This document shows, in pieces, positions 23,141-57,767 of a stretch of DNA of 64,000 nt (position 1 is the stretch's first letter; the number at the start of each line of letters is the position of its first letter). The notes under the pieces are model-generated. The model worked only from the letters and a program-made list of their open reading frames with translations. It made no database searches and was not told the origin of the DNA. The DNA is from Lophium mytilinum (taxonomy: Eukaryota), in NCBI GenBank assembly GCA_010093605.1, contig MU004197.1:620001-684000 (forward strand), in the 5' to 3' direction. The position numbers and the translations under genes are program-made.

Positions 23141-25516
23141 ATGACCTCTCGGAAAAGGCGCGCGCCCGGCGCTTCAACTCAGGTTCAACAACCCACCAAT
23201 CCCCAACCTACCACGTACCCCTCGAACCAAGACACCAACATGGCGGACCAATATGGCGGACTGAACTGGGAGGATCCGTCCTTGATAAACAACCTGGCGG
23301 CATCGTACGCTGACCCGGCACTGTACGATCCTAACATCTACAACACCACGAACGGCGTAGCGCAGAATGCTGCGACGGGTATATCGCAAGACCCGGCCTC
23401 ATATTCGGGACAGCTCGTGAAGCGGAACACGAATCAACAAGTGGCGGCGCGAGCGCGGACTCCTTGGGATGCTTTTCCTGGCGATGGCGGGGGACAGCAG
23501 CCTCCAGGGTGGGAGAACACAGACGACGATGAGGATTTGGAGGGTAAGGCGATGCTGGCGAAGAAAGATGCACAGTCAAAGCGCAAGCAGATACCACCTT
23601 TCGTGCAGAAGCTAAGCAGGTAGGCAGATCGTAGACCTTGGAAGTACTCGTATAACTGACTATTCACTAGTTTTCTGGATGAAAAGAAGAACACCAACCT
23701 TATACGGTGGTCAGACGATGGGAACTCCTTCATCGTGCTAGACGAGGATGAATTCGCGAGGACTCTAATACCTGAACTATTCAAGCATAACAACTATGCA
23801 TCGTTTGTGCGCCAATTGAATATGTACGGGTTCCACAAGAAGGTCGGACTTTCGGACAACTCTATGAAGGCTAGCGAAACGAAAGCCAAGGCACCGAGTG
23901 AATACTTTAACAAGTATTTCAAGCGGGGAAGGCCGGAACTGCTCTGGCTCATTCAAAAGCCAAAGAACCAGCCCGCAAACCCGAAGCGGAAACGAGACGA
24001 AGATAGCGCCAAGCAAGGCGATAGTGATGATGACGGCAGGAGATTCGGGACAGAGTCGATCGGCGTAACAAAACCTTACGCAGTGGATGACGGCGGAGGC
24101 GGTACTAATCCAGAGATGGCTATGATTCCCCGGACCGAGTATAACAGCCTCAAGCGGGAGGTTATGCAGCTCCAGCAGCAGCAGAAGGTCATTTCGAACG
24201 TTCTGAATAGGATACGTCAGCAAAACGATCAGCTATATCAGCAAGCTACCGCATTTCAGACCCTCCATGATCGACATGAAAACAGCATCAACGCCATTTT
24301 GACCTTTCTAGCTACCTTCTACAGCCGCAGTGTGGAAGGAAACAACGCTCCAAACATTGCGGAGATGTTTGCAAATGCTATTCCCCAGAATAATCAGACC
24401 CATGGCAACGTCGTTGATGTTGGCGATTACCCGGAACCTATGCCGAACAGATCTCCTCAGATGCATCGGATGGGAAAGCGACCACTGGCTTTACTTCCTG
24501 CTCCCACACCCAAGGAATCGGAATCCCCAGCAAGCCGGGCTGCCACCGTCAGTACCTCAGCAAGATCAACTGCAAGTCCAGCTGCTGCCAGACCGCAAGG
24601 AAGGCAGTCGGTGTTCAAATCTCCCCTCGTGCCTACTGGGAACGCCCAACAGGTATCAGGAAACACTGGAGACATGGGTGCTGCGTCCGGGCCACTACCA
24701 ATCAAGACTGACGCGGCATCGCCTACCGTCAACCAAATTCCAGAAAACAGTGAGATCATGTCAGCAATTCGCAACGCCAATGCGAACAGCGCCCAGAACA
24801 ATGCGAAGGGGCAGTACGACTTCGGCGCAGCTCTCAACCACTTCCAGAATGCCAATGGAGCGCTCCCTATGACTAATCAGGAACGAAACAACATGCTATC
24901 TTTGATGGTTTCCAACGCAAGCACAGCTTCTCCCAATAGCGGCATCGCTGATGGAAACAACGCGATGGTCAGCCCAGAGGCGCCCGCAATGCCGTCATTA
25001 GAACAAATGGCGGCGACGCAAGATCAGCTGGACTTCCTCCAGAAGATGTCAGAGCAGCAAAATTCAAGACTACAGAACGTGCAGGAGCGTCTACAACCTC
25101 TCAGTCCATCGGGCTCCATCCCTGGGCTTCACCAAGATGACTTCGGCTCTTACTTCAACCCAGGTCTAAACAACCTTGGGAACCCGAGCGATTTGAACCT
25201 GGACGATTCGTACATGGATTCTTTCATTCACTCGGACGACTTCATTCCCAACCAGCAGAATAACAGCAACGGTCTACCCGATTTCAAGTTTGATCTGCCT
25301 GACCCAGACACCATGGCCAATGATGATCTCTTCCAGAACGCGGATATGGGTAACGAGTACGGCAACGGAGCTGTGCAGCACAGCGGAGCTGGAGTTGACA
25401 ACAGTGGCAGGATCGAGAGTGTGAGCAGTACGGCGACGAGTCCTGCGAACACTGTCGAGGAGAATGGAGGGGATGATGCTGCGAGAAGCCCAAAGCGGAG
25501 GCGGCGAGCAAATTAG
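23141..25516 (+). CDS. HSF1: Heat shock transcription factor, exons 23141-23619 and 23671-25516, ~774 aa
   Basis: HSF DNA-binding domain (IPPFVQKL...IRWSDDGNSF...FKHNNYASFVRQLNMYGFHK); coiled-coil trimerisation region ending INAILTFLATFY; no receiver domain, so not SKN7. Confidence 0.95.
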
Positions 25517-26130
25517 GAAGGGGTTGGATATAGGGGATGTGGAGGTTGCGTTCAGCGTTCACGCAGGGTGGCAGTTCTATAACGAGCACCGTCCTCCTTA
25601 CACGACCGAAACGAATATTTATGATAAAAATTGGGCGGGCACATGGGCATGCTTGGTAGCCATGTTGGATGGCTCGCTGCTAGCGAAGGCGTTGTAGCTG
25701 CTGTATCTAGTAGATACCCTTTGGTCGCGAAATGTGATAGGAATTCGATCCTACAAGCAGATTGAAGATGTTTAAGATTCACGTGATTTATGAATTAGAG
25801 ACAAAGAACGAAATATTAAGTATTTAGAGCACAGGATCTACCTTAGTCTTGTACTACTTGCAAACGATAGTAATTTACCATGGTCCCCTCTAACGCTGCG
25901 TCATCGTAGCCTGAGAAAAAGAAGCTCTGACTTTTATCTATGAAAGGTCCGATAAGCATGGACGATATCGTAAATATCGCCAACCTCACCTCCCAAAACT
26001 TGCACACACCACCCACACGTCACCACCAACTCGACAGCTCTCAGACGCAAAGAGCGCACCCTCACACATATTTACTACTAAGATGGCTTGAAAACATCAC
26101 AACCCCCAAGCTACCATCACAGCCGTCGCA

Positions 26131-29100
26131 ATGGCCGACGACAACGACTCCCGCATGGCGGACAGCCGCCGCAGCAGCTTCGCCGCCAACGGCACCACCT
26201 CGCACCGCCGGCGCGTCAGCGGCCTCTACCGCCGCGGCTCCAACATGAGCGACGCCAGCTTCATGACAGACGTCGAGATGGCGCAAGAAGAGGTCAGCAG
26301 CATTCCTCTTACGCGCATGCCCGTAGCCTCAATACCTATCTCCAAATCCAAATCCACAATACCACCCCCTGCCCATTCAAAACGTGTGAAACCAAATTCG
26401 AAGGCGGCTGCGGATAGAGATTCGAAATCTAGGAACGATGAGCTGACACCACCCCCCGCGGTCCAGGTATTCGCGGGACCGATGTCTGAGAGCGTCCCCA
26501 CCAGCGTGTCGTCCTTTGCGCATCGGCGCCAGCGGTCGAGAGCGGATTCGACGGCGAGTTTTACGTATTATGATGAGGATCGGGATAGTGAGGAGGGGGT
26601 GGAAGAAGATGCAGTTGCGGAGGAGTATGGGGAGGTTGACGACGAGTTTGAATTTGAGGAATATGGATATGGGGACGACGAGAATGGGGAGGGCGATCTT
26701 GAAGCAGGTTTAATACAATCGCGGAGACCAAGTTCGAGAAGGAAGTCGTCAGGGTATTCGAGACGCAGTGTTGATGCGCCGCTTTTGAGAAGGAGGTCGG
26801 CGGAGAGTTCGGCGTCGGGGGACTGGAAGGGCGGGAGGGTCAGTCAGAAGATCTTTATTTTGACGGAGGATCTGACGATTGTGGTGGCGGGGTTTAAGAC
26901 GAGTGTTGCTGGGTTCGCGGTGTATACGGCGCTTTGCACGGTCACGCTGGGGCTGGCGTGGTTGCTGTTTCGGTGGCTGCCAAGGTGGAGAGTAAAAGTT
27001 ATTGGGACGCCGACGGCGCTTGGGGATGCGGACTGGGTGGTTGTGGAGAATCAATGGGGGGAGTTTGCGGTGCAAGATATCTCTAACCAGACGTATGGCC
27101 GGTCGTTGTCGACGGTGTTTGGTGATGAGGAAAAGGTGGTACCCATGGACTACGATGAGGATGATGATCCGGTCATCAAGCAGCTAAGAGCTCTGGATTA
27201 CCGGTATATTCGATTCTGCTATCACCCGTTGAAGGATAAGTTCGTACTCGCCAATACCTGGAAGGATCCCGCGTGGACCGACGTTAACGCCCTTCGCGAA
27301 GGCCTGGATAGCGAAGAACGGGATTATCGGGAAAGAGTATTTGGCAAGAATGCAATCGATCTCGAAGAGAAGTCGATCGGACAGCTCCTCGTAGATGAGG
27401 CATTCCATCCTTTCTACGTGTTCCAGATCGCCAGTCTGATTCTTTGGTCTTTGGACGAGTACTATTACTACGCCGCTTGCATTTTCATCATCTCCGTGGT
27501 CAGTATCGGTACCACGCTGGTGGAGACGAAGGCTACCATGAAACGGCTCCGGGAAGTTTCACGGTTCGAGTGCGATGTAAGAGTGCTTAGGAACGGCTTC
27601 TGGAGATATGTCGAGTCTAGCGAATTGGTCCCTGGTGATGTTTACGAAGTAACGGATCCGAGCCTGACACAACTACCCTGCGATAGTCTCTTGCTTTCTG
27701 GCGACTGCATAGTCAATGAGAGTATGCTTACTGGCGAATCTGTCCCAGTCTCCAAGTTTCCGGTGACCGACGAGGCTTTGGAACTGCTCAATCTGAGCGC
27801 ATCGACAATTCATCCTGAAGTGGCACGACACATGCTTTTCTCCGGAACCAAGATCATTCGAGCCAGGAGACCGCAGGAAGAAGGAAATGACGAGGCGGCA
27901 GCTCTAGCTATGGTGGTGAGGACCGGCTTCAACACTACCAAGGGTGCTTTGGTCCGATCTATGCTTTTCCCAAAGCCGTCCGGTTTCAAGTTCTACCGCG
28001 ACTCTTTCCGCTATATCTCGGTTATGGCAGGCATTGCATTCATTGGATTCATCGCCTCGTTCGTCAACTTCGTCAGGCTGGGGCTCGCACCTCATTTGAT
28101 TGTCGTCAGAGCACTGGACCTGATCACCATTGTCGTTCCACCTGCTCTTCCAGCCACACTTACGATTGGTACAAATTTTGCGCTTTCTCGTCTAAAAGGA
28201 AAGCAGATCTTCTGTATCAGCCCTCAGAGAGTCAATGTTGGTGGCAAATTGGATGTCATCTGCTTTGACAAGACTGGAACTTTGACCGAGGATGGCCTAG
28301 ATGTTCTGGGGGTTCGTGTTGCTCAACGACCGAATAACACTTTCAGCGACATTCTCACAGAAGCCCCAGACGTTGTTCCAGGCGCATCATACGAGCGGGA
28401 CCCCACGATCGACTACAGCATCAACAAGGGTATTCTTTACACGATGGCAACGTGCCACTCGCTTCGCATGATCGATGGTGAGCTGCTTGGTGATCCTCTA
28501 GACGTCAAGATGTTCGAGTTCACCGGATGGAACTACGAAGAAGGCGAGCAAAGGTCTGGCGGTGGCGGAGATGATGAAGACGACCACAAATTATCACCTT
28601 CGGTAGCCAGACCTCCTCCGGGAATGGAGTACGATATCGACGACGATCTGAATGATACGAATCGAAAACCAATTGAACTTGGTGTCTTGAAAATGTTCGA
28701 GTTCGTCTCCCAGCTGCGGCGAGCCAGTGTGGTGGTGCGTCAGTTTGGGTCGAAAAGCGGGAGTGTTTATGTCAAAGGCGCTCCTGAGTGCATGAAAGAT
28801 ATTTGCCGTCCGGAGAGCTTCCCATCGGATTACGAGGACCTTCTCGCCTACTACACTCACAGAGGGTTTCGCGTCATTGCGTGCGCTACTAAGACGATTC
28901 CCAAACTCAATTGGGTCAAGGTCCAGAAAATGAAAAGAGATGAGGCGGAGTCTGGTCTTGACTTCATGGGCTTCATCATCTTTGAGAACAAGCTCAAGCC
29001 TAGCACGACTGGGGTCATTGACGAGCTAGAGAGAGCTGGCATTCGCAAAGTGATGTGCACAGGCGACAATATCCTAACCGCTATCAGCGTTGCCAGGGAA

Positions 29101-30406
29101 TGCAACCTCATCGACAAAACAGCTCACTGCTTCGTTCCTCATTTCGAAGAGGGCGACTCTCGAACGGCCCTGTCTCGCCTGAGCTGGGAAAGCGTGGACA
29201 ATCCTATCTACAAACTCGACGAGAACACGCTCAAGCCTCTTCCTCCGCCAGCTGAAGGCGACGCTTCGCTTCCATACGATATTTCAAACCTCCGCAACTA
29301 CTCAGTCGCGGTCAGCGGTGACGTATTCCGTTGGATCATTGACTTTGCTTCCGAAAAGGTTCTTCGAGAGATGCTCGTATGCGGCCAAGTATTTGCCCGC
29401 ATGTCTCCAGACGAGAAGCACGAGCTGGTTGAGAAGCTCCAGAGCATCGACTACTGCTGCGGCTTCTGCGGCGATGGTGCTAACGACTGCGGCGCTCTCA
29501 AAGCTGCAGACGTCGGCATCTCTCTCTCTGAAGCGGAAGCGTCTGTCGCTGCTCCCTTCACTAGCCGCGTGTTCGACATTTCTTGCGTTCCTGAAGTCAT
29601 TCGAGAGGGTCGTGCGGCACTGGTAACCAGCTTCAGCTGCTTCAAGTACATGAGTTTATACTCGGCCATCCAGTTCACATCTGTCAGCTTCTTGTACGCC
29701 TCGGCCTCCAATCTCGGAGACTTCCAGTTCTTGTTCATAGATCTCCTCCTGATCCTCCCCATCGCCATCTTCAGTAAGTCCCTTGTCCACCTCCATCCCA
29801 CGTAACTAACCACCATCAGTGGGCTGGTCCGGTCCCTATCCCACCCTCTCCCGCAAACGCCCCACCGCAAGCCTAGTCTCCCGCAAAGTCCTAACTCCCC
29901 TCCTCGGCCAAATCGCCATCTGCATCCTCATTCAGGCCATCGGCTTCCAGTATGTGCAGCGCCAACCCTGGTTCGTGCCGCCTGTCGTGGACAAGAACAA
30001 GTCAAACTCGCACAACTCCGAAAACACCACCCTCTTCCTCGTCTCCTGCTACCAGTACATCCTCTCCGCCGTCGTGCTTAGCGTCGGCCCCCCATTCCGG
30101 CAGAGTATGGGACAGAATCTGCCCTTCGTGATTACGATGGTCGTCACGCTGCTGGTGGCTACGTACATGCTCTTCGATCCTGCGCACTGGCTGTACAAGC
30201 TTATGGATCTCACGAAGATGGATATGGGGTTCAAGCTCTTTATTTTGGTGCTTGCGGCAGGCGGGTTTACAATTAGCTATACGGCTGAGAAGTATTTGCT
30301 ACCGCGGCTGGCAAGTGGGATAGGCAGGTTTACGGTGTGGCTGAGGCCGCAGTGGAGGAAGAAGAGGAAGGAGTATAAGGTCGTGCTGGAGAGTATGAGC
30401 AGTTGA
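26131..30406 (+). CDS. YPK9: P5B-type ATPase (Ypk9/ATP13A2-like), exons 26131-26292, 26467-29773, 29820-30406, ~1351 aa
   Basis: LTGES, PPALP (P5B signature), DKTGTLT, KGAPE, TGDN and GDGANDCG motifs. Confidence 0.95.
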
Positions 30407-43834: not shown

Positions 43835-45481
43835 CTATATCTCGACTGTCTTCAGATCGCCAACTTCACTGGCAATCCCGTTCTTGACGATCCCGTCTAT
43901 CTTCTTCGTGTCCTTATTCTCCTTCTCGCTACCGAAGCTCGTCCGGGGTGTTGAGCCCAGCAGGTCGTCGCTCGGTCGGGGTGTGTCAACGGACACGAGT
44001 TTCTCGACAGGCGTGCCGTTCCTAGGCCCTAGGTCGGTATGGACTCGAATCGGGGCTGGGTTCTCCTCCGCAACCCTCGCCAACGGGCTGGAGATGTGCG
44101 CTCTTGGGCTCGCCGTTGGCTTGGACTTCTGCGAGAAGCGTTGGGGGCTTCGTCCGCGCTCCTCGGCCGTGCTCGTTGTCGGGCTTGCGTAAGGACTGTT
44201 TGCGCTATGAGCACTGCCTGGCCCCTGGGACCCACCAACATTAGAATTAATATGTAACGCGGACTGCGGCCGCCTCTTTGGCCCACGCCGTCCGTACTTC
44301 TGATCGCAACGCCAGCGGAGGATCTCGAGGTAGGCTGGTTCGACGTTCTGGCGCTTGAACTCGCGCAGCTTGAGCTCGCCGCTGTCTTCGTCTACGAAGG
44401 GCTTGTCGGTCTCGAAATCGTCGGCGGCCATTGCGAGCAGGTGGGCCCATGAGCGTGCAACGACGTATTTGCAGTCGTAGTCGCGGCCGAAAATGATGAT
44501 CTGGCCCCATGTGCCAGCTGGTCCGGGCGCAAGATCAGTCGCCAGGTAGTTTCCTCCCCAGTCTCGAGCGAGAGGAATCCAGGCAGGATGAGCGTACGCT
44601 TTTTGGATTGCATTCGGAGGCTGGGACTCCTGGCGACTCTGCAGCTGTTCCCGCCAGAGGGGATTGGTCGATTGCTGTGCCGCGGGTGGAGGAGCCGCGG
44701 AGGACGAGGCACCGGCAAACGCCTTCAAGGGCGCTTGAGGAATTCGGATGTTGGGCTTCTTGGCAAGATACTCTTCGGCGACCTTTCGCCAGTTTTGCCA
44801 CTCGTGGACGATTTCCTCGCAGTCGAGCACCATGCAACTGAACAGCACGCCGGTGGGCAGGCCTCCGCGCTCCTGGCCGTCGTGTATTTGTAATGATTCG
44901 CGGACATCTTGCGGCAATGTGCAGTCCAGCTCGTGCTCGAGCTCGTTGACGTCGTTGGAGGTGCAGCCCTCGCAGAGGTTGTCGAACAGCTCCTCGTAGT
45001 GGGTTTCCAGCCAGCGCTCAATGCGGCCCCAGGAGTGTCCCAACGGCTGGGCCGGCGGCAGGCCTTCGTTGAAGTCACGCATGGGGATCTCGCCCGACGG
45101 GCTTTTGGCGTCGAAGGCCTCGGAGTCGGCGGTGTTTTGGCGGCTCAGCGAGGACCGCATTCCAGGGGAGTAGGGCGAGTGCGGCGACATAGGCCCCTTG
45201 GGAGAGCCGATGAAGCCATTGCTCATGGCCGGGTCGTCCTGGGCGTAGGAGGACAGGTCCACGCGTGATTCTATGCCCGTGGTCGCAACGGAGGTGAGAG
45301 GGGCGTGGCGGCTCTGGGGCAAGGGGATATGGCGGCCGGTGCGGTAGGGCGAGTCGTGGGAGGCATGGCGGTCGTTGGAGGTCATGGAGTGCCAAAAGGT
45401 CCGCATCGAGTCGGCGAAACTGCAGCACGGTGAGTAGGGAGTTTGGGAAAGGGATTTTTAGGGGAGGTCGCACCCTGCCAT
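43835..45481 (-). CDS. SMI1: Glucan synthesis regulator Smi1/Knr4, exons 45481-45474 and 45419-43835, ~530 aa
   Basis: FWHSMTSNDRHA N-terminus; Smi1/Knr4 domain (LEHELDCTLPQDVRES...HDGQE...WIPLARDWGGN...DLAPGPAGTWGQIIIFGRDYD). Confidence 0.93.
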
Positions 45482-47495: not shown

Positions 47496-49396
47496 CTATA
47501 AGGTATTTTTTCCAAGAAACTGCGCCAGTTCGTCTTGCAGCGGCAACAAGATGCCTTCCACAGCGGCTTGCAGGAAAACGGGGTCCTGGAGACTGCTCCC
47601 AGGGTCGCCGAAGCATCGCAGGCAGTGCGTGACTGCTGCGAGAAAGGCGGCGGATAAATTCTCCCTCTCGACCTCTGTCCATTCGTAGGCCATCGCACAT
47701 ATCGTCCATGGGTTGGATTGGCCGCCAGCTGGAAAAAGCTCACCTTCCTGGTATTTCTCGGCAGAGACGCCAAAGTAGAGCTCCAAGAGAGCCACTGCAA
47801 GCGCGAGAAGGATCGTATTTTTGTTATGGAAGGCGCGGCTTGGGGGTTTTCCATTTGTGATGGCCCCGTTTGAAGCTTCGTGAAAGTTCTGCGTCACATA
47901 AGGATGCTCGATATCAACTGGACGACTGCCATTCGAGATACGATGGAACACGATGTCTTTCTTGCCCCACTGGTCGTTGAACCACGGTGTTGCATTGAGT
48001 TGGAGTGTCGACGATGCGAGTGTGACAGCAAGGCTATATCTTTCTCTCTTGGTAAGTCTGGCTGGCCTTCCATTAACCACCGGTGGGTGTGTCAAGAGTT
48101 CCTCGAGTGTGATGAGCTCACGCCCACCTACTGCCTTCTCTTTGCGAGGCGTTACTGGGTAAGCTCCTCGAAGCTTACCTTTCTCATCTAGGGAAAATCC
48201 GATGCACGGGACAGTGATCTGAAACTTTTGAATGGCGGAGCAAAGGTCATCAATTTCTTGCAAACGTTTGGCGTCGGGTACCGATCCAGGTTCAGGGTCT
48301 GCGGAGTATGGCGGAGGTGGGTTGATCGTGCTGGACCAACTTACCCCTTTGCTTAACCTGGAAGTTGATGTTAGCTATCTGGAATTCCGTAATATATCGT
48401 TCATTCTGATTCTCATTCTTCTAGGAAATAACTGCGTAACTACTCACCTTGGCTTGTAAGGAGAAGGAGCCGGCGAAGATTCTACCGTCTCCTTCTGTTG
48501 GATTTGGATTTCAGCCTCCTGCCATGTCCCAGGATCGCTCGAGAAAGCCACAGTAAAGCAGAATTCTCGACTCATGTCGCCCTTTTTCATCACCACTCCC
48601 GAAGCAACTCCTGAAATGCGCTGTTCCAACTGTAGATTGGTGCAATGCGAAGACCTGCAAGAGCAATTCCATGATTGCACCAGCACTTGGTGCAGGTTCT
48701 TCGCATACGATTGTATCTTTTGTAGTCGCTTCGCGAACGAGGGTTTGGAAGCCTTCCGGAACGGCTCAAGTCTCTCGCTCCGATCCGTGAACCTCTCCAA
48801 TTCTTTGTTGCACTCGTCCAACTCCTCCAGCAGACCCTTGATATGCTTCTTGTTCATCCCAAACCGCACCCGTTTCCGAAATTCGTATTTCTGGTTTGCC
48901 TGGCGGGGATTCGCTATGAGCATTGCTTCGAGTTCATTCCTGGTAAGCTAGGAAGCATTTGCGGTCAGCGACGTTCACCCCAAGCAAGGAATGTGGAGGG
49001 CCTGCATACATTACTCGCCCGTTCTAGATCCAACTTGCTCGCGATCTTCTTCATGATCCTCTCGATATCCTGAATAGTGCCCTGGTACGCCTGATACGAC
49101 TCCGCAAGCTTCTCTTGCAGCTTCTCCGCCATAGACTCCTCCTTCCACAGCTCGCCATTTGGGTCCGCAATCATCTCTGCGAGGTCGAATTCTGTCGTTA
49201 TTGGGGCGAGTAGCAGCCGTAAGGTCTGCTCGTAGTGGACATGCTGGTTTCGCAGCTTCCGAATGAACTGGGGGAGTTCTCGTTCCCATCTTAGAAATGC
49301 CTTGACGGGATCTAGGCCGTCATTGTAGTCTTCGAGCGCTGAGATGAAGAGTGGCATTACCGCCAGGATCAGCCCGGCAACTTCGGCTCCACTCAT
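47496..49396 (-). CDS. Uncharacterised protein with a HeLo-like N-terminal helical domain and a kinase-C-lobe-like (catalytically dead) C-terminal domain; exons 49396-49010, 48947-48448, 48357-47496, 582 aa
   Basis: N-terminal MSGAEVAGLILAVMPLFISALEDY hydrophobic helix; C-terminal RYSLAVTLASSTLQLNATPW...W.KKDIVF...LLALAVALLELYFG...AVTHCL pattern; both introns canonical and in frame. Confidence 0.85.
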
Positions 49397-49838
49397 GGCT
49401 GGACATGCATAGCAGGTGCTCTACAGTCCGAAGCATTCCTAGGACATGGAGTAGGGAATATCATGGAGGAGAGTTTGTAAGCTTGTGGGGTGAGGGGAGA
49501 CGAGAGATGCCTCTGCGACGCTATTACCATGCGGGCTGTGTACCAGCCCCATCGACCGGGCTTCATATTCATGTCAACAATCTGGGATCTTGAGTAAGGA
49601 TAGATCAAGTTGTAATATCCATAGAACTCAAGATTAGAACTTCCAATATTGTGTAGCGCATTTAAGACCGCATGGAGAATAGAGAAATAATACCATTATT
49701 CATTCCATAACCGGCATAGCTTACCATCAAGATAGCGGAGGCCGTTTGGCGGGACAGACTTCAGCCAGTCTGCCTCGCTGGCATCAGGAAGTTTTATCAA
49801 CGAAGAAAGTCTCGCATTCATTATGTTCCCATCCGATC

Positions 49839-52800
49839 ATGTCGGATATCAGATTAGGCACCGCTGCCTGTGTGCTCCAATTTCAGTCCCTCTCCAACGG
49901 CCTTCAGACCGGCGATGACGCCGCCAGGGAACATATCACCCCGGAAGCACTCGAAGACGAGCATGGCCGCTTTAGGGTCTGGTCTGGGAACCTTGGAGCC
50001 CTCCAAAAAGGTCACAGCTCCTTGGATTACCGCCTCCGCGACTCACCACTGCTGCAAACCAATATACTGAAGTTGCTCGGAGAACTCCGGGCCAATCTCT
50101 CGGAGGCTCTCGCTGTGGTTTCTGGTAGCCGCTTACCCTACGAGAAGCAAGCTAAATATGAGAGCGAAGATGACGACGATGACTGGAGCCAGAATGAGGA
50201 AGACAGCGACGAGGACGATGACGGAGGACCCCCAAAGTCCGAGCTTGAGCAAAGATTCCTCGACACCGTTGATATAATCGACAATCTGTACAAGCTTTCT
50301 GTCAGGATTCGGTCTCCAACACTTCGCTCAAGGTCCTTGAAAGCTGCGTCTTTTAGACCAACGGATCCGGACACTGGCGTCGATACCTTTGAGCAGTATG
50401 CTCTCTTCGATGAGAAGTACACGCGGGAGCTGCTTAAATATTTCCGCCAATCTACTTCGGAGGTGGAGGATCCAGCGGATGAGTATCTCGTCGAACGCTT
50501 GAGTAAAGCTATTACTCTCAGAAGGCGTCAATTCAAGTACTGGCGACGACACCGAGATAAACTTGGGGGGTCCTCTACCGCCACTGATGCTATGCTGAAG
50601 CCGGTGCCAGTAACCCCAGACTTCTTGAGTCCTCAGCCCACACCGCAGGACGGCCAAGGAGAGCAAGAGCCGGTCCAACATACACCTTTGGCACGGAGCG
50701 AATGGGCTCCACTGTCTATGCTGTCAGGTACAGAGGCTACTCAGCACCATCGCTCACTCGATGAGATAGTGGACAGTCAATCGGTGACTTCTTACGCTAC
50801 TACCACACGAGACCTGACGGGACATGGTATTGACCTTCCTCCCCCTCCCAAACAGGCAATCGAAGACCGAGATTTCGAGTGCCCTTACTGCTACATTATC
50901 TGCCCGGCTCGTTATGGCAGAGGTCGCGCTTGGAGAACACATCTCTTACAAGACCTGCAACCATATGTCTGCACCTATGAGGATTGTACAGTTGGTGATC
51001 AGCTATTCCGGAGCCGCCGGGAATGGATTGAACATGAAGCCGGACACAGAAAGCTATGGCGATGTCCAGAGCACAAGAATTCCATTTACAAATCGAAAGC
51101 CGGGCTTGAAGATCATCTCCACGCCGAACACCCAGGAACCTTTCCAGAGGACCACATCAAGAGCATCTTGAGCATTGGAGAAACAACTTCCGTTGACTTA
51201 CGCCCGAAGTGTCCCTTATGCCTAGCTAATGCAACTATGGAGGGCGGGCTGCAAAATCACATTGCGAACCACCTAGAGAGATTCGCTGCATTTGCGCTCC
51301 CCAAGGACATCGATACAGCGGACGACCATTCTGATGCAGGAAGTGGTATTGCATCACGCGGGAGAAGTGAAGCGTACAGCGGCTCGCAAGACCTCAGTGT
51401 CAGCTCTGAAGGTGTAGATCTAGTTGATTGGGGTGCGATTGAGGGAGATACTCGATCTGGCGTTTTAATATCCAAGATAGAACGACTTGCTGGCAAGGTA
51501 GAGTCTCTTGACGCACAATTACCGACCCCGAAACCAGGGAACAAGCTCTTCAGCGATCTACTTCATCGCCTTCCTGATTCCAGAGATCAGAGAATGGACA
51601 TCTTCCTGTCTTCAGGCGAACTAGACAAACCTCCTCCTCCAAGCGAGAATACGATACCAGATTTAGTTGGTTTAGATCTGGAGACAACGGGGAGAACCCG
51701 TACTGCCAGACTGAATTTTGCAAACCTACCTCAAAGCAGTAGTGATCTACAGGCAGGTCTATTGCAACAATTTCTGGAGGCGCGCCCTGGCTACCGATCG
51801 ATGTCTGGGCTGAAATTCACCGAGGATAAATGTAGCGGTCACGCAAAATTCACAAATATCACCTCCGCAACGAACGCATTGGAAGCCATAGATGGCTCTA
51901 TATTCCCAGGAGTTATTTTCAGTATAGACGAGAACGTCGGCCCTGTCACTCGCTTTGCAGAGTTGCCTACGCTGACATCCGAATCATCAGATCGAGGAGA
52001 TGATGATTCAGATTCGTTGGTCGGTATCAAGCCTCAACGACGCAACCAAGTTGAGCATGGGCCTGCCTCTGACCCTCCTAATAAAAATCTGAAGGAATCC
52101 ACGCCGCTTTCGGGAATTCCCACTCTTCAGCAACTTTACAGTGGACAAACGATTCCGCGCAATAGCCGGCGCGACCAAAACGAAGCGTTCAATAACACTG
52201 TCTGCCTTGTGTTCACAGACATAACTGTACTCCACGTCGACGCAATCGTCAACCCCGTTGGCCGCAACCTGGCCAAAGTCGGGTCGGACCTAGGTCGTCT
52301 GGTACATAAGATCGCAGGTCCAGGATTACAGAAAGAGATAGACTCTATACAACGCCTTTACTCCACAGGCGAGGTGGTGATGACGGATGCGTACAATCTT
52401 CCGTGCAAAAAGATTATTCATGCCGTTAGGCCGCATTATGCATCCACGATGGAAGAAGTCTCTCGTGGCCTTCTTACGGAATGCTATAGACGTGCTTTAG
52501 AAACGGCCGAGCAGAACCAGCTGAGGACTATTGCGTTCCCAACGCTTAGCGCCGGCGGATTCGGGTTTCCTTCGTCAAAGGCCGCGACGGTGGCCATTCG
52601 GACAGTTAGAGATTATTTGGAAAGTGGAAGGGGAGCCTTACTCGATCGGATCATCTTTTGTGTTTTCACAGAGCGAGACTGGCAGACATATTGGGATACC
52701 TTGCCGTAAGCTCATTCTAGATTTCCGTTGTCATTCCTACCGTAGAATCGTTGGCTAATATGTTTACAATAGGATTTTCTTCCCCCCCAAGTCGAAATAC

Positions 52801-55800
52801 TCCTCAATTATTTTACCCGACCAGTCAGGTATCTCTGGCAACGACAACGCTGTCAATTCAGTCGATCCTGTCTCCACAAGTACCATCAAACCGTACTTCG
52901 AGCATCGATATTCGGCGTATGTATGGGAACTGAAAGAACTGCATGAACAGATCGAAGGCGTTGCAGAAGATCTCATAGTCTTCCGCGACAAAGTACCTGA
53001 CTTCCAAGAGACTAGCATCAGAGAACTAGTCTTCATAACTTCAACACTAGCAGAGCTGGAGAAACTGTTCGAGGGGTCTTCCACTATACACAGCATGACA
53101 GAACGAAGAGCAGCAGACCTTGATCTTATCTGCTGCGTTCTACGGAACGTCGCTGGTGGTATTCATGAGATTGTCATGCAGACAACCTATACTAGGAATA
53201 TTGGTGTTCCAACGCACAAAGATATCTGGGAAGGCTACATCTTTCATCTGCAGAATACTCAGGGCCTTACGTTCGTTGAGCTTACGGAGCTTTGCGGAAA
53301 TTTCCTCCAGAGCCTCTCCGATATCCTTAAGCTGTATGCGATGCTACTCCCACACTAAAACTTGGACTAATGAGTACTTAGAAACGGAAGAGAACCCGAC
53401 GATATGAGTTTATTACGAGACAAGTTATCTCGGTATCGCCTGAATCAGTCTGGCGGAGGTGTCCAACACGTCCCTACGAAAGTATTCGACGAAGCACTAC
53501 TTGCCCGGGGATTCAGCGCCGAGGCTTGGGAGAGCAAGGAACGTCAAGCCAACCTACTCAGGGCCAGCGACATCCCTTCCTTGAGCCGCCTGTACCAACT
53601 AGGCGAATTGGACGAGAATATGCCCACGAGTCAATCACCAAGCAGTCAAGCCAATAGCACAGTCTGTCTCATCAGACACAACATTACTCGTCTCCAGGTC
53701 GATGTCATTGTCAACTCAACGGACATGGCATTCGCCGGAGTCGGTACCCTTGATCGGGCAATATTTAAGGCTGGAGGGTTGACAATGCAAGAAGACTGCT
53801 CTAAGTTTGGCATGCTCAAGGAAGGCGGCGTTCGGCTCACCCAGGGATACTTGCTTCCATGCAGGCACGTCATACACACTGTACCGCCAGAATATTTCAG
53901 CGAGAAGTCGATGTCATTGTTAGGCAAATGCTACCAGAACGCTCTCAAGATGGCAGTCGATATTGGGGCCCGGACTATCGCGTTTCCCGCCATTGGAGCA
54001 GGGGAACTTCGATACCCAAGCGAATCGGCTCAGGTCGGCATGGCGGAGGTTCGCAAATTTCTGGACGAGAATAGAATCACTAAGATCGAGAAGATTATTT
54101 TCTGCGTGTATGGAGACTATGAGGAGAATACATACAAGAAAATGCTTCCGTAAGTCTATCCTAATCACCTCCATATCTTGGACACTCCAAGTTGAGCTCC
54201 ACCATACTAGTCCAGTACAAGTTTTTGACATCATTCAGGCAATTCTTCCCTCCAATCGATCATAATGTCAACAAGGCTTTGGCCGAGATCGGCGCCGAAA
54301 GAATAGTTGAAAGGCGACTCGAATCAATTGGCAGCACCCCAATCCAAATACCCAGCAGAAACCGGAACTCTCAATATACCCTTAGACCAAGTGCAGAAGG
54401 GTCAAAAGGGCAGAAAAGCGTCAAGTTCTCACATTCTCCAAACACAACTCCGCCACGTCCACTAAACCCCGATGAGATAGAAGCTGTTGAGAGATTCGAA
54501 GCACATGCGAACAGCTGTGACCACTGCGAGGATCCAATACACGTCTACCGGACCTATGGAAGCCTCTGCGAAGACGGGAATAGTCTCGCAGAAGAGGTAG
54601 CAGAGCTTCTATTCATCGAATCAGGCGGCAATGTCTACAGTACAGCGCTGCAAAATGGCCATCGAGTCGAGCTTGACTTCCCAGATGCTTACGGAGTGAC
54701 CAAGCGCCTGCTCAGGGCGATAAACGAAAGCATACGCGAGCCGGGTAGGGGTTCCTTCGTCAAGACGTGGTATACTCCAACTCCTCAAAGCGACTCCGAA
54801 GATCTGCAATGGAAGGAGTCTCCGACAAAGGAAGACGCTCCGCCAGAGGTGTGGAGTAAAGACTGGGACTCGTTTGAAGCTGTGAACTATGGCAGCGAAC
54901 CATTACAAACGAAATATCCGTTTGCAGCAGATGCAGATACCAAAGAGGTTATAGAGAAGACGAGCGACCAGCCTACAGCTCGGGAAACCCACGCCAGGTT
55001 CTCCGATCCTCCACATGAGCAGCTCGGCGGTGTTGAGTCCCAAGCCAGCAATAGGGAAAGCATCCCATCGCGAACGCGGTCACCTCCCCCGATAGGGCCG
55101 CCATACGATCTCCAGCCTCTTCTGGAAGGCCTGATCCACGGCCGTGCTAGCAAAGAAGCTTTTGAACCCCACGCCGACAGTAGTGAAAGCTTTCCAGCCG
55201 AGCTGCTAGAGGGGCACTATTCATACACGGATCCCGCCGGGATGTATAGAGATACTATTTCCTGGCGAGGGACCAAACAGCCTACAGATCTGAAGCCTTC
55301 TGATCCCGACACTAAGAAATCCGGTTCCTTAGCAATACCCGCCCGCGGCAGCCAAAAGAGCATCTTGCGGCAACCTACCCCGAAATTCCCGGAAGACGCC
55401 AATGTGATACGAGAAGGCGCTGCTCCAGCCAAGGGCGCGGAACCCAAAGGAGTACCAGCCGGAGCCCGGTGGACCAAGATCGACCGACGTCTCGTCAACC
55501 CTGCGGCTTTGGACGAGGCAAAAGAGCGGTTCGAAGAGCGCATCGACTCCGTCGTCGTTTTACGCGTGCTGACGAAAGAGGAGATCCAAGCGCTGGCAAC
55601 TCGCACAGAGCAGATCCGTGAGTCGAGAACGGACGAGTGGCTTGAGAAGCGTCAGGAAGCAAGACGGGGTTCCTTCGACGGAGTATCCAAGCCTAGCAAA
55701 GGGCAGCGCACGCGGTTGACTACGCTTGACCGGCAACTCGTGAGTCCTGAGGCATTGAAAGAAGCTGGAGAGAACTTTGAGGAGCGTCTGGATAGCGTTG

Positions 55801-56315
55801 TTGTACGACGCGGCTTGAGCGAAGAGGAAATTGAGGAGCTTGCGGATCGGACGAGAAAACTTCGGGACGCGAGACCTGCCGCGTTCACGATCGAAGCGCC
55901 TTCGCAGCTCTCATCAGTACAGGTTTCTACAAAGCCACCTCAGCCCCAGAAACCGGATGATCCGCGGGATCATTTCATGGAAGATGGGGGCAAGAAATAC
56001 CCCGGGAAGACCGTGTCGGCAGCAGAACTCTTCGCTCTCCCCGAACTGCGCCGTAATTTTGAGGCTCCCTCTCGCTCGTCAACGGGGTCGCCGCATGTCC
56101 TACCCAGCAGCTATCTCAATCAAGTCAAGGGAGAGTATGCGGACCAGCCTGATGTTGTTGGACGCTTCCAGCAGGTGCTAAGAGATTTCCAGAGCGGGCG
56201 GATCGATTCGCCTGCTGCTTTACATGAGATCTCTAAGCTTTTTGAGGGAAAGCCGGACCTGATTCGAGGTTTCAATATTTTCTTGCCGCCTGGATACAGG
56301 ACCGAGGAGTCGTGA
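49839..56315 (+). CDS. Giant mosaic protein (~2090 aa): helical N-domain, C2H2 fingers, RRM-like domain, 2 macrodomains, Cys/His module, duplicated RWTKIDRRLV module, PAH domain; exons 49839-52705, 52773-53333, 53382-54149, 54239-56315
   Basis: Three GT-AG phase-2 introns with branch sites join four ORFs into one 6273-nt frame; domain motifs read directly from the translation. Confidence 0.8.
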
Positions 56316-56647
56316 TTGGAGCGAGCTTAGTCATAGGCCCTGTTTGGATAATGGGATAGAGCTTGTTGAGACTATTAATACAACGTGTTTGAAACTGGGG
56401 ATAGTCGCAGTGTTCCCTAATGTTCCCCTGTCTCATGATCCTATTCTTTCACTGGAACAGTCAAAATGAGGCAACTCCTTCCAAGGTCAATGATCGCTAC
56501 GCGCTCTCTCCTCTCGGCGAGCCACTCCAGCGTTCCTCGCGCCTACCAAGATTTCATTGCCGTCGCTGTCTGCTAGCTTTTGCTGACTCATTTTCCTCGG
56601 ACACCTTTCTTCCCCTAAATCGGTACCAAAGTCCCACGCAGCATAGC

Positions 56648-57121
56648 TTATTCCACAGCTGCATCCCCTTGGTATCTGCACCTAGTCTCGCATCCCGGAA
56701 GCTCTAAGATGGTCTTTCCTGCCCTGCATACTGCCTCGTCGGGGTAGGCCTTCCACTCCTGATTTGCCAAATGTTCAACACTCTGCTCAGCCCCCTTCGT
56801 GAGCGGGATGTCGTCCATTTTGACCCAGCCTAAGACGCTCAGGTTTGCCGCGTCGTAGAATACACGCAACACGTCATCTGTAAGGGACGTCGCGTTCTCC
56901 GGGCAGGCGATGCAGCCATTGCTCGCACAGCAGTTCGTAGCTAGCGCAGGTGTCGGAACCTCTGGTATAATGCACGTGCTGGCGTTGGCTTTAGCGTACT
57001 CGTATTTCATGCGCTCCATGTCCAATTGGAACGCGCGGTCCATAACGAAGAACATAATTGAAAGGAACCCGAAGAAAAACCCGAGGGGAATGAAGGCCAG
57101 TACCAGCAGGATGCAGCACAT
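56648..57121 (-). CDS. Hypothetical small membrane-anchored Cys-rich protein
   Basis: ATG at 57121 opens a hydrophobic anchor ([27 protein letters not shown]); [11 protein letters not shown] cluster; TATAAAT-like box at ~57221-57227. Confidence 0.5.
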
Positions 57122-57767
57122 GTTGAAAATGAGACGTTTTGTGTTCTGACGGACCACTACGAAGTCCGTTAGTACTTAGTTACTGCTCTCAAAAGCTTCA
57201 GTTAGCGTTGCGACCTTCTTATTTATATCGGGGAGATGGGTGGTGTGTGGAGTGCAGCTGACCTGGCGGATGCAACTCTCCTCTTTTCAATCTCGCCTCG
57301 AGGACTCTTCGTCGGTTGATCGCTCGGTGTGCGTAATCAAAGTCTTAATAGAGGGACGCCCTGATTCAGGTGAGTTCAACGCTATGGTGTTGTCGTTGGT
57401 AGGGGAATGTCACGGCACACGGGGCTGTAGGCTGGGTACGTGATGTATTTGAGAGAAAGATGTCTGGAGCAAGGTGAGACTATATACAAGGTAACACGTG
57501 CCTGCCGTAGCCCTCACCGCTCCTCTCCGATAGAGAGGAAGGACGAAAGAGACTGTGAAGTTCCCAACTCCAGCAATCGTGCCTCCTTTTTCGGTAGCGA
57601 GCTGCCAATTACGTTATACTCATCCACTTTCGAACTGTAATAGATTACCTGCCGAACCATGGCAACGTCCCTTCGATACCAGAGATGCCATAGTAGCCAC
57701 CTGTCCATTTTCCGCTTCTATAAATTCGCCCAACTCTTCATCGTCTTCCTCATCACTACCACGCAAT

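Follow-up and report, generated by a model that had tools for sequence, protein, structure and literature searches.

Tandem macrodomains are known from PARP14 and PARP9, where some of them act as readers, and PARP14 also carries RNA-recognition motifs (RRMs) on one long chain. In the catalytic signature, as described in the available portion of PMC7729036, the last Asn of a NAAN motif and a triple glycine serve to hold the distal ribose and to make up the catalytic loop. The accessible text of a 2026 review (PMC13720257) regards fungal readers of ADP-ribosylation as unknown and suggests that erasers may be adapted as readers, and that of a 2026 preprint on fungal PARPs reports that these proteins carry no macrodomain and that how fungi read ADP-ribosylation is not known; within the same portions of both sources, no readers of the WWE, PBZ or macroH2A-like kinds are known from fungi. 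The present analysis concerns a 64,000-nt stretch of the Lophium mytilinum genome (GenBank assembly GCA_010093605.1, contig MU004197.1, positions 620,001 to 684,000 of the forward strand; hereafter the window), in which a single gene encodes a 2090-aa protein with two macrodomains. With a probability of roughly one half, this protein would be an adaptor or scaffold that reads ADP-ribose marks, a judgement drawn from sequence features.

As a reader adaptor, the protein would be a conserved modular scaffold comprised of an N-terminal head, a diverged RRM, two MacroD-type macrodomains spaced by a helical domain, a module with His-Cys-Cys-Cys ligands (HCCC), and DUF8035. The macrodomains would keep the fold together with the adenine and phosphate contacts and would be devoid of the MacroD catalytic signature; because that signature appears to be lost in both, recognition of ADP-ribose marks on protein or nucleic acid is suggested. 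The docking modules would bring partners to these marks, a setting in the nucleus and linked to nucleic acid being most likely, and in the Mytilinidiaceae lineage alone a peptide-docking domain of the Sin3 PAH1 type would have been appended. The analysis shows the structure of the gene, its transcript, the identities of the domains, the pattern of conservation and the substitutions in the motifs; ADP-ribose binding, the role of reader and not eraser, the nuclear role and partner recruitment are all features that we infer. The macrodomains are the only modules of known chemistry, and the variable modules are all of peptide-docking or nucleic-acid-binding types. The modules along the gene are as follows.

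49839..56315, + strand: whole coding region, 4 exons, 2090 aa
49839..50558, + strand: helical part of the head, residues 1-240, with motifs GRFRVWSGNLGA and SLDYRLRD and the basic stretch RRRQFKYWRRHRDK
50709..51338, + strand: zinc-finger part of the head, residues 291-500, zf-C2H2_AcuF (PF26082), four predicted sites
51687..51992, + strand: RRM-like domain, residues 617-718, diverged, placed by alignment to the orthologue P0251
52119..52705, + strand: macrodomain 1, residues 761-955, extending to about residue 960 in exon 2, Pfam Macro 6.2e-26
52906..53433, + strand: helical spacer domain, residues 1001-1160, between the macrodomains, interrupted by intron 2
53569..54149, + strand: macrodomain 2, residues 1206-1398, extending to about residue 1404 in exon 4, Pfam Macro 3.9e-23
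54468..54752, + strand: HCCC module, residues 1476-1570, H1488-x3-C1492-x2-C1495-x13-C1509
55359..55637, + strand: DUF8035 copy 1, residues 1773-1865, full length, PF26118 precomputed
55707..55877, + strand: DUF8035 copy 2, residues 1889-1945, C-terminal half only
56103..56312, + strand: Sin3 PAH1-type domain, residues 2021-2090, at the extreme C-terminus, sharing its exon with DUF8035

Macrodomains: reader or hydrolase

The two macrodomains scored 91.1 and 82.1 bits against a Pfam Macro (PF01661) cut-off of 22. The best PDB match of macrodomain 1 was human MacroD1 (2x47, 1.4e-30), and macrodomain 2 matched PARP14 macrodomains 2-3 (3vfq, 2.5e-30) and MacroD1 (5.9e-30), such that MacroD1, MacroD2 and PARP14 topped both match lists. 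The NCBIfam models found on these domains are those of O-acetyl-ADP-ribose deacetylase or ADP-ribose-binding proteins. By fold class both are of the MacroD type, and on the basis of their residues neither appears to carry the catalytic signature. In macrodomain 1, NPVG stands in place of NAAN and a triple glycine is missing; in macrodomain 2 the motif reads NSTD, the His position is occupied by Phe, and the loop is G-x-G, again with no triple glycine.

Conservation at these positions was assessed in a full-length alignment of 28 of 62 full-length proteins, in which the 27 orthologues are 35-83% identical to the Lophium protein. Macrodomain 1 has Gly at position 4 of the NAAN motif in Lophium and Mytilinidion; 24 of 28 rows have Asn there and 2 of 28 have Ser. 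The position of MacroD1 Asp-184 is Asn in 23 of 28 and Asp in 1 of 28, and the His is kept in 27 of 28. Macrodomain 2 has Asp at position 4 in 26 of 27 rows, its residue at the MacroD1 His position is never His (0/27) and is Phe in 24/27, and the Asp is kept in 25/27.

These values bear directly on the main rival to a reader adaptor, i.e. a hydrolase with targeting modules, in which the protein would be a true enzyme (an O-acetyl-ADP-ribose deacetylase, an ADP-ribose 1''-phosphate phosphatase or a protein ADP-ribosylhydrolase) and the other modules would target it. The agreement of Pfam, PDB and NCBIfam on a MacroD-type domain is in its favor, as are the Asn and His retained in macrodomain 1 of most aligned orthologues and the Asp retained in macrodomain 2. 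Sources also name orthologues as such enzymes, but the names are automatic. The Lophium protein itself, however, has Gly at the NAAN Asn of macrodomain 1, Asp and Phe at the Asn and His positions of macrodomain 2, and a triple-glycine loop in neither, and we consider a hydrolase unlikely.

Several points weigh against a reader adaptor. Macrodomain 1 of most orthologues retains both the NAAN Asn and the His, and loss of a motif is no proof that catalysis was lost, all the more as the loop alignment is uncertain. The helical head, spacer, HCCC module and DUF8035 are of no known fold or function, leaving much of the protein unexplained. Furthermore, the occurrence of the head on NB-ARC/TPR and NACHT-like/ankyrin proteins, together with the place of its family among the most copy-number-variable ones in Neurospora, as reported in the available part of PMC13412767, hints at conflict biology.

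The macrodomains likely arose from one another. They are identical at 79 of 195 positions (flanks included), and each is followed by LP, a phase-2 intron and xFFPP, such that introns 1 and 3 occupy the same relative place in the same phase; this suggests that a unit extending across the intron site was duplicated in tandem. A tree built from 54 macrodomains of 29 proteins united 24 of 25 second copies in one clade (100/99) and placed the first copies with the single ones found in Botryosphaeriales and Coniosporium. Within each macrodomain clade, taxa grouped by lineage. From the clades and their lineage order, the duplication predates the split of Pleosporales, Mytilinidiales and Gloniales. 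A long branch (0.52) leads to macrodomain 1 in the Mytilinidiaceae trio.

Gene structure and module composition

The locus is covered by four + strand stop-to-stop open reading frames (ORFs) in the ORF list (49683-52709, 52759-53358, 53374-54153 and 54165-56315). An earlier note on this DNA had also counted four ORFs and had proposed a single spliced gene of about 2090 aa with three introns. The structure was as follows.

49839-52705, 52773-53333, 53382-54149 and 54239-56315 (stop included), + strand: exons, from the sequence, the spliced contig and the translation
52706-52772, + strand: intron 1, 67 nt, phase 2, GTAAGC...CTAAT...AG, after LP and before IFFPP
53334-53381, + strand: intron 2, 48 nt, GTATGC...CTAAT...AG, holding an in-frame TAA and interrupting the helical spacer
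54150-54238, + strand: intron 3, 89 nt, phase 2, GTAAGT...AG, after LP and before QFFPP

Transcript evidence came from X1, the single public run matching the stretch, whose library kind is RNA by guess and which was used solely for its intron-less joints. A 7370-nt contig from this run matches 49796-52705, 52773-53333, 53382-54149 and 54239-57000 with 0 mismatches and 0 gaps, and the pieces that it skips are exactly 67, 48 and 89 nt long (GT..AG) and coincide with the three predicted introns. Since the skipped pieces are present in the genomic window, the contig is derived from a processed message. From the first in-frame ATG (49839) to the stop TGA (56313-56315), the four joined exons yield 2090 codons plus stop, identical to a public 2090-aa protein (P0001) recorded as 'hypothetical protein BU16DRAFT_543692 [Lophium mytilinum]' and also as 'Macro domain-containing protein'. 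This is a real gene, transcribed as a single message and already treated as one unit in the annotation. The transcript check across the three introns that the earlier note had called for thus gave one contig and no separate genes, in support of its spliced model. Its concern that automated annotation may miss the fusion was mistaken, because the deposited model is identical to the spliced translation.

The idea that two to four adjacent genes were wrongly read as one retains next to no probability. The raw ORF track does consist of four separate ORFs, and the public models of some orthologues are shorter or split (e.g. P0250 with P0292, and P0251), but a single contig runs in frame through the four exons with canonical splice sites between them, which already refutes the idea; in addition, about 100 relatives are collinear, and the split models are exceptions that resemble truncated predictions.

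Two further features of the message were observed. An upstream ATG, out of frame and 16 nt before the main start, opens a 31-codon ORF (49823-49918, +) that overlaps the start codon and lies within the transcript contig, whose start is at 49796. Beyond the stop codon the 7370-nt contig extends for about 1 kb, and a convergent 175-codon ORF with a hydrophobic stretch (56648-57175, -) lies under its 3' part; two convergent messages that overlap may have been combined in this contig.

At least eight module types were found in the protein, where at least seven domain types had been expected, and the expected motifs all lay within a few codons of their predicted positions: EDEHG at residue 39 (49953), FECPYC at residue 346 (50874), LNFANLP at residue 625 (51711), H1488 of the HCCC module at 54504, and RWTK at residue 1809 (55467). 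The description of the domains as partly degenerate held for the RRM-like region, which falls below the Pfam threshold in this species, and for the macrodomains with their missing NAAN and triple glycine, but not for the PAH domain. The proposed two-copy ERFEER module corresponds to two DUF8035 copies, only one of which is complete.

The head, in which four AcuF-type zinc fingers follow a helical domain, defines a large Pezizomycotina family. The helical domain (about 240 residues) precedes the fingers in nearly every holder and in nearly all starts at residue 1-26. Its motifs show the highest conservation in the whole protein, with columns 41-80 being 86% identical over the 27 orthologues and W48, N51, L62, R65, R67, R229 and Y234 invariant in 42 orthologues and paralogues. 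No Pfam family in the local copy and no PDB relative by sequence search was detected for residues 1-240. The predicted finger sites are C348/C351/H368/D372, C378/C383/H399/H403, C409/H412/H426/H431 and C458/C461/H474/H478; of their 16 ligand columns, 14 are invariant and the other two nearly so (38/42 and 37/42 sequences). The PF26082 assignment is a precomputed Pfam 38 match on the public protein, the model being absent from the local Pfam copy, and neighbors in a protein atlas carry the same family (score 0.97), with the head matching PF26082 clusters only. Otherwise the fingers gave weak matches only (Zn_SUZ12 at 0.0016 in Pfam; CTCF at E 0.25 in the PDB sequence search), and in a Pfam search at E<=1 of 21 head-bearing proteins the head gave just weak Zn_SUZ12 matches, in 14 of 21.

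Residues 617-718 are probably a diverged RRM. No Pfam RRM match was obtained in this region at E<=0.1, and its PDB sequence search returned no RRM (best PsaV 0.0044, glucanase 0.65). Two orthologues exceed the RRM_1 cut-off (20.7) in the same relative place, P0251 with 22.3 bits and P0265 with 27.3 bits. The Lophium region aligns to residues 753-849 of P0251 (E 2e-5), overlapping the RRM_1 match of that protein at 764-822, and does not align significantly to P0265 (E 0.54). It is 82% identical to that of Mytilinidion.

Counts of the remaining modules were obtained with local hidden Markov models (HMMs) seeded from the Lophium protein, and are affected by truncated or split entries among the public gene models. 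The helical spacer, 91% identical to that of Mytilinidion, was found in 104 proteins, in each case between two macrodomains; it has no Pfam relative, and its PDB sequence search returned noise only. The HCCC module was found in 93 proteins, all from the same orthogroup among the proteins scanned. Each of its ligands (H, C, C and C) is present in 27 of 28 aligned orthologues, suggesting a probable zinc site. No Pfam relative was found for this module, a PDB sequence search of residues 1400-1870 was empty, and the protein atlas provided leads only (scores 0.82 and 0.77).

DUF8035 was recognized through a precomputed Pfam 38 match of the public protein to PF26118, which we take to be the accession of this family. 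Exon 4 matched 1209 library proteins at E<=1e-10, mostly on the RWTKIDRRLV (DUF8035) stretch, and small proteins share 58-72% identity with the region, among them P0125 (72%), which is source-named as DUF8035 domain-containing protein. A PDB sequence search with the DUF8035 profile gave low-complexity matches only. A survey of partner domains in 45 proteins provided no functional lead, with 38 of 45 having no Pfam family and the others carrying HET, SH3, Zn_clus, Myb or Pkinase.

The C-terminal Sin3-type PAH domain was upheld by a Pfam PAH (PF02671) match of 2.6e-10 and 40.3 bits (cut-off 21.3) and by a gapless alignment to residues 226-291 of yeast SIN3 (PAH1; domain E 4e-15, 32 of 66 identical, 48%), from which the domain appears intact. 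It is 84-86% identical to that of Mytilinidion, 67-69% to fragments of two metagenomic relatives, and about 50-55% to every Sin3-type PAH compared, all of which are from other organisms than L. mytilinum. Within the orthogroup it was detected in P0001, P0002 and the fragments of two relatives only, i.e. in 2 of the 102 relatives with a full core (defined below), suggesting an addition confined to the Mytilinidiaceae lineage. A search with the PAH region likewise gave P0001 and P0002 alone among 15 candidates. A different combination was observed in Trichoderma gamsii, where P0098/P0297 (1814-1816 aa) combine the head with two PAH domains, a ubiquitin-like domain and BAG. These PAH domains are just 25% identical to that of Lophium, and the head-PAH fusions are therefore considered independent.

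Conservation, turnover and the immune alternative

A search with exon 1 among longer proteins returned 102 relatives, and a head search gave 195 matches at E<=1e-10, 120 among the matches listed. Across 145 of these relatives, scanned with the local HMMs, a macrodomain was present in 111, and fingers, two macrodomains and spacer occurred together in 102 (the full core). Within these 102, the helical head was found in 81 (many of the others being N-terminally truncated models), the HCCC module in 88 and DUF8035 in 61. The named sources of relatives are Pleosporales, Mytilinidiales and Gloniales, with a simpler form in Botryosphaeriales, Aulographum and Coniosporium. The core from head to HCCC module recurs in about 100 proteins of Pleosporomycetidae and is vertically inherited and conserved. 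Mytilinidion resinicola has the identical architecture at 83% overall identity, and between these two proteins the domains are 74-91% and the linkers 40-68% identical, a pattern suggestive of purifying selection on every module for which identity is a protein-level proxy only. Two metagenome scans for DNA from close relatives were empty. In a further close relative (head 82% identical), P0250 and P0292, each listed with a contig of 8380 nt, jointly cover the whole architecture including PAH; they are probably one gene split by the gene caller.

The earlier note had also suggested domain accretion on one scaffold, and some accretion did take place at the periphery of the protein. In addition to the PAH domain, an EVH1-like domain (PF24345) is present in 80 proteins, often with an RPA_C winged helix, and in Pleosporales only. 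In Botryosphaeriales orthologues (Diplodia and Lasiodiplodia) an HSF-type DNA-binding domain occupies the RRM slot (P0063 852-941, P0261 725-815), and it is 28% identical to the canonical HSF encoded in the Lophium window. Partner domains across the orthologues comprise RRM_1, HSF_DNA-bind, RPA_C, HTH_69, Myb, Zn_clus, EVH1-like and PAH. The linker at residues 1571-1772 of the Lophium protein was considered as a degenerate EVH1-like domain and rejected: the local HMM found no such domain anywhere in this protein at E<=10 and was likewise empty in P0002, P0003 and P0292.

Turnover is more extensive among head-bearing proteins as a whole. The head occurs without macrodomains in 34 of the 145 relatives, where it is joined to tails such as Pkinase (alone or with FHA), Pkinase combined with bromodomain and SH3, TPR, ankyrin, NB-ARC with TPR, NACHT-like with ankyrin, Sec7, RGS, SAM, AAA ATPase, NmrA, and BAG with a ubiquitin-like domain and two PAH. 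L. mytilinum itself encodes such a paralogue (P0085, 1926 aa), with a head 42% identical over 520 residues followed by a kinase, bromodomain, SH3 and zinc ribbon.

These tails raise the possibility of an immune-type sensor, in which the AcuF head would serve all members as a signalling or effector module and the tail domains (macro and PAH here; kinase, bromodomain, HSF and RPA32C elsewhere) would be integrated copies of host hubs that bait the effectors of pathogens or selfish elements, a widened form of the 'integrated baits' of the earlier note. The position of the head at the N-terminus of nearly all holders, the other tails of the 34 relatives (including NB-ARC + TPR and NACHT-like + ankyrin), the lineage-specific domain swaps within the orthogroup and the presence of a DUF7580 protein as divergent neighbor are consistent with such a sensor. 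The available text of PMC13412767, a Neurospora pangenome paper, names zf-C2H2_AcuF alongside HET as one of the families with the strongest copy-number overdispersion, and CHK-2-like kinase domains are proposed as integrated decoys in fungal NOD-like receptors (NLRs) in the accessible part of a Sordariales study.

The properties of the gene itself, however, argue otherwise. Its protein has no nucleotide-binding oligomerisation domain (NOD) and no repeat domain: no NB-ARC or NACHT match was obtained in Pfam at E<=0.1, the one G-x4-GK[ST] motif (residue 1983) lies in a linker, and no LRR, WD40, ankyrin or TPR repeats were found by Pfam. No PADLOC match was obtained, the core architecture is stable across the subclass with domains more conserved than linkers, the PAH domain appears intact and close to that of Mytilinidion, one macro-bearing member was found per named species among the matches listed, and the neighborhood is of a housekeeping type. 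No literature was found linking the AcuF head to NLR signalling. In the literature searched, no function is described for this head, PF26082 is mentioned in one paper, and no mention was found of acuF-like, DUF8035, PF26118 or six orthologue locus tags. The words C2H2 and zinc are absent from the main text of an NLR effector-domain survey, and the 12 of 17 supplementary files of the Sordariales NLR paper (PMC12258605) that were searched by terms contain generic zf-C2H2, not AcuF. The bait proposal was thus not borne out, the same architecture being conserved in Mytilinidion and the core in Pleosporales, Mytilinidiales and Gloniales, which largely corresponds to the pattern that the earlier note had named as refuting it. 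An immune sensor is a minority view, improbable in our estimation, which rests on the behavior of the head family rather than on that of this gene.

A bolder and even less probable variant would regard the AcuF head family as a NOD-less modular surveillance or signalling system of filamentous ascomycetes, with the Lophium gene as its ADP-ribose arm and the PAH1 copy of Mytilinidiaceae trapping co-repressor-directed molecules. The head, obligately N-terminal, would then be coupled to swappable hub domains (CHK2/Mek1-like kinase, bromodomain, HSF, RPA32C, Sin3 PAH1 and macrodomains), and the diverged macrodomains would sense ADP-ribosylation or NAD-derived signals. In a milder version, the orthogroup could be the missing fungal reader of ADP-ribosylation.

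Genomic surroundings and comparison to known systems

The surroundings of the gene within the window are listed below.

47496-49420, - strand: DUF7580 protein (PF24476, 2.5e-21), divergent neighbor, 418 bp upstream
43835-45457, - strand: SMI1/KNR4 (SUKH-1) family ORF (1e-19), in a stretch of 61-63% G+C as compared to about 50% around it
1-41035: upstream housekeeping genes, including histidine phosphatase, alpha/beta hydrolase, prephenate dehydratase, amino-acid transporter, Bmt2 rRNA methyltransferase, MFS transporters and a cyclin
23660-25516: canonical HSF, further upstream
26092-29805: P5-type ATPase, further upstream

The DUF7580 neighbor has a hydrophobic helical N-terminus, and its first exon is covered by a second X1 contig (depth 404); no Pfam or PDB relative was found for this N-terminal exon. 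No tRNA genes were found at 1-41035 of the window.

The locus is otherwise an ordinary single one, annotated, vertically inherited and set in housekeeping surroundings. Its family links two MacroD-type domains that appear devoid of the catalytic signature to peptide-docking and nucleic-acid-binding modules, providing a concrete, testable candidate reader of ADP-ribosylation in Dothideomycetes, a class with many plant-associated fungi. It also brings to light four conserved modules for which no fold is known (helical head, spacer, HCCC and DUF8035), the promiscuous N-terminal head being the most interesting.

Several known systems can be compared to the protein. Among the MacroD1/MacroD2 hydrolases, alignments to human MacroD1 span the full domain including flanks for both macrodomains, whereas the NAAN Asn, the GGG loop and, in macrodomain 2, the His are replaced, and the Lophium domains are tandem copies within a 2090-aa multidomain protein. 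Tandem macrodomains, and with them a probable diverged RRM, recall PARP14/PARP9, 3vfq being the top PDB match of macrodomain 2; unlike PARP14, the Lophium protein has no ART (PARP catalytic), WWE or KH domain, and its head, HCCC module, DUF8035 and PAH have no PARP14 counterpart. The PAH domain matches PAH1 of the Sin3 co-repressor gaplessly over 66 residues, but it is single and C-terminal, and with no HDAC-interaction domain or other Sin3 family detected by Pfam the protein is not a Sin3 orthologue. Plant and fungal NLRs with integrated decoys likewise fuse extra domains resembling host regulators to a shared module, as is proposed for some Sordariales NLRs, whereas the Lophium protein lacks a NOD or repeat sensor and is conserved, not rapidly turning over. 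With the zf-C2H2_AcuF family, the Lophium protein shares the finger block with its invariant ligands and the preceding helical domain, and it differs in its tail, in place of which other members carry kinases, TPR, ankyrin, NB-ARC or BAG.

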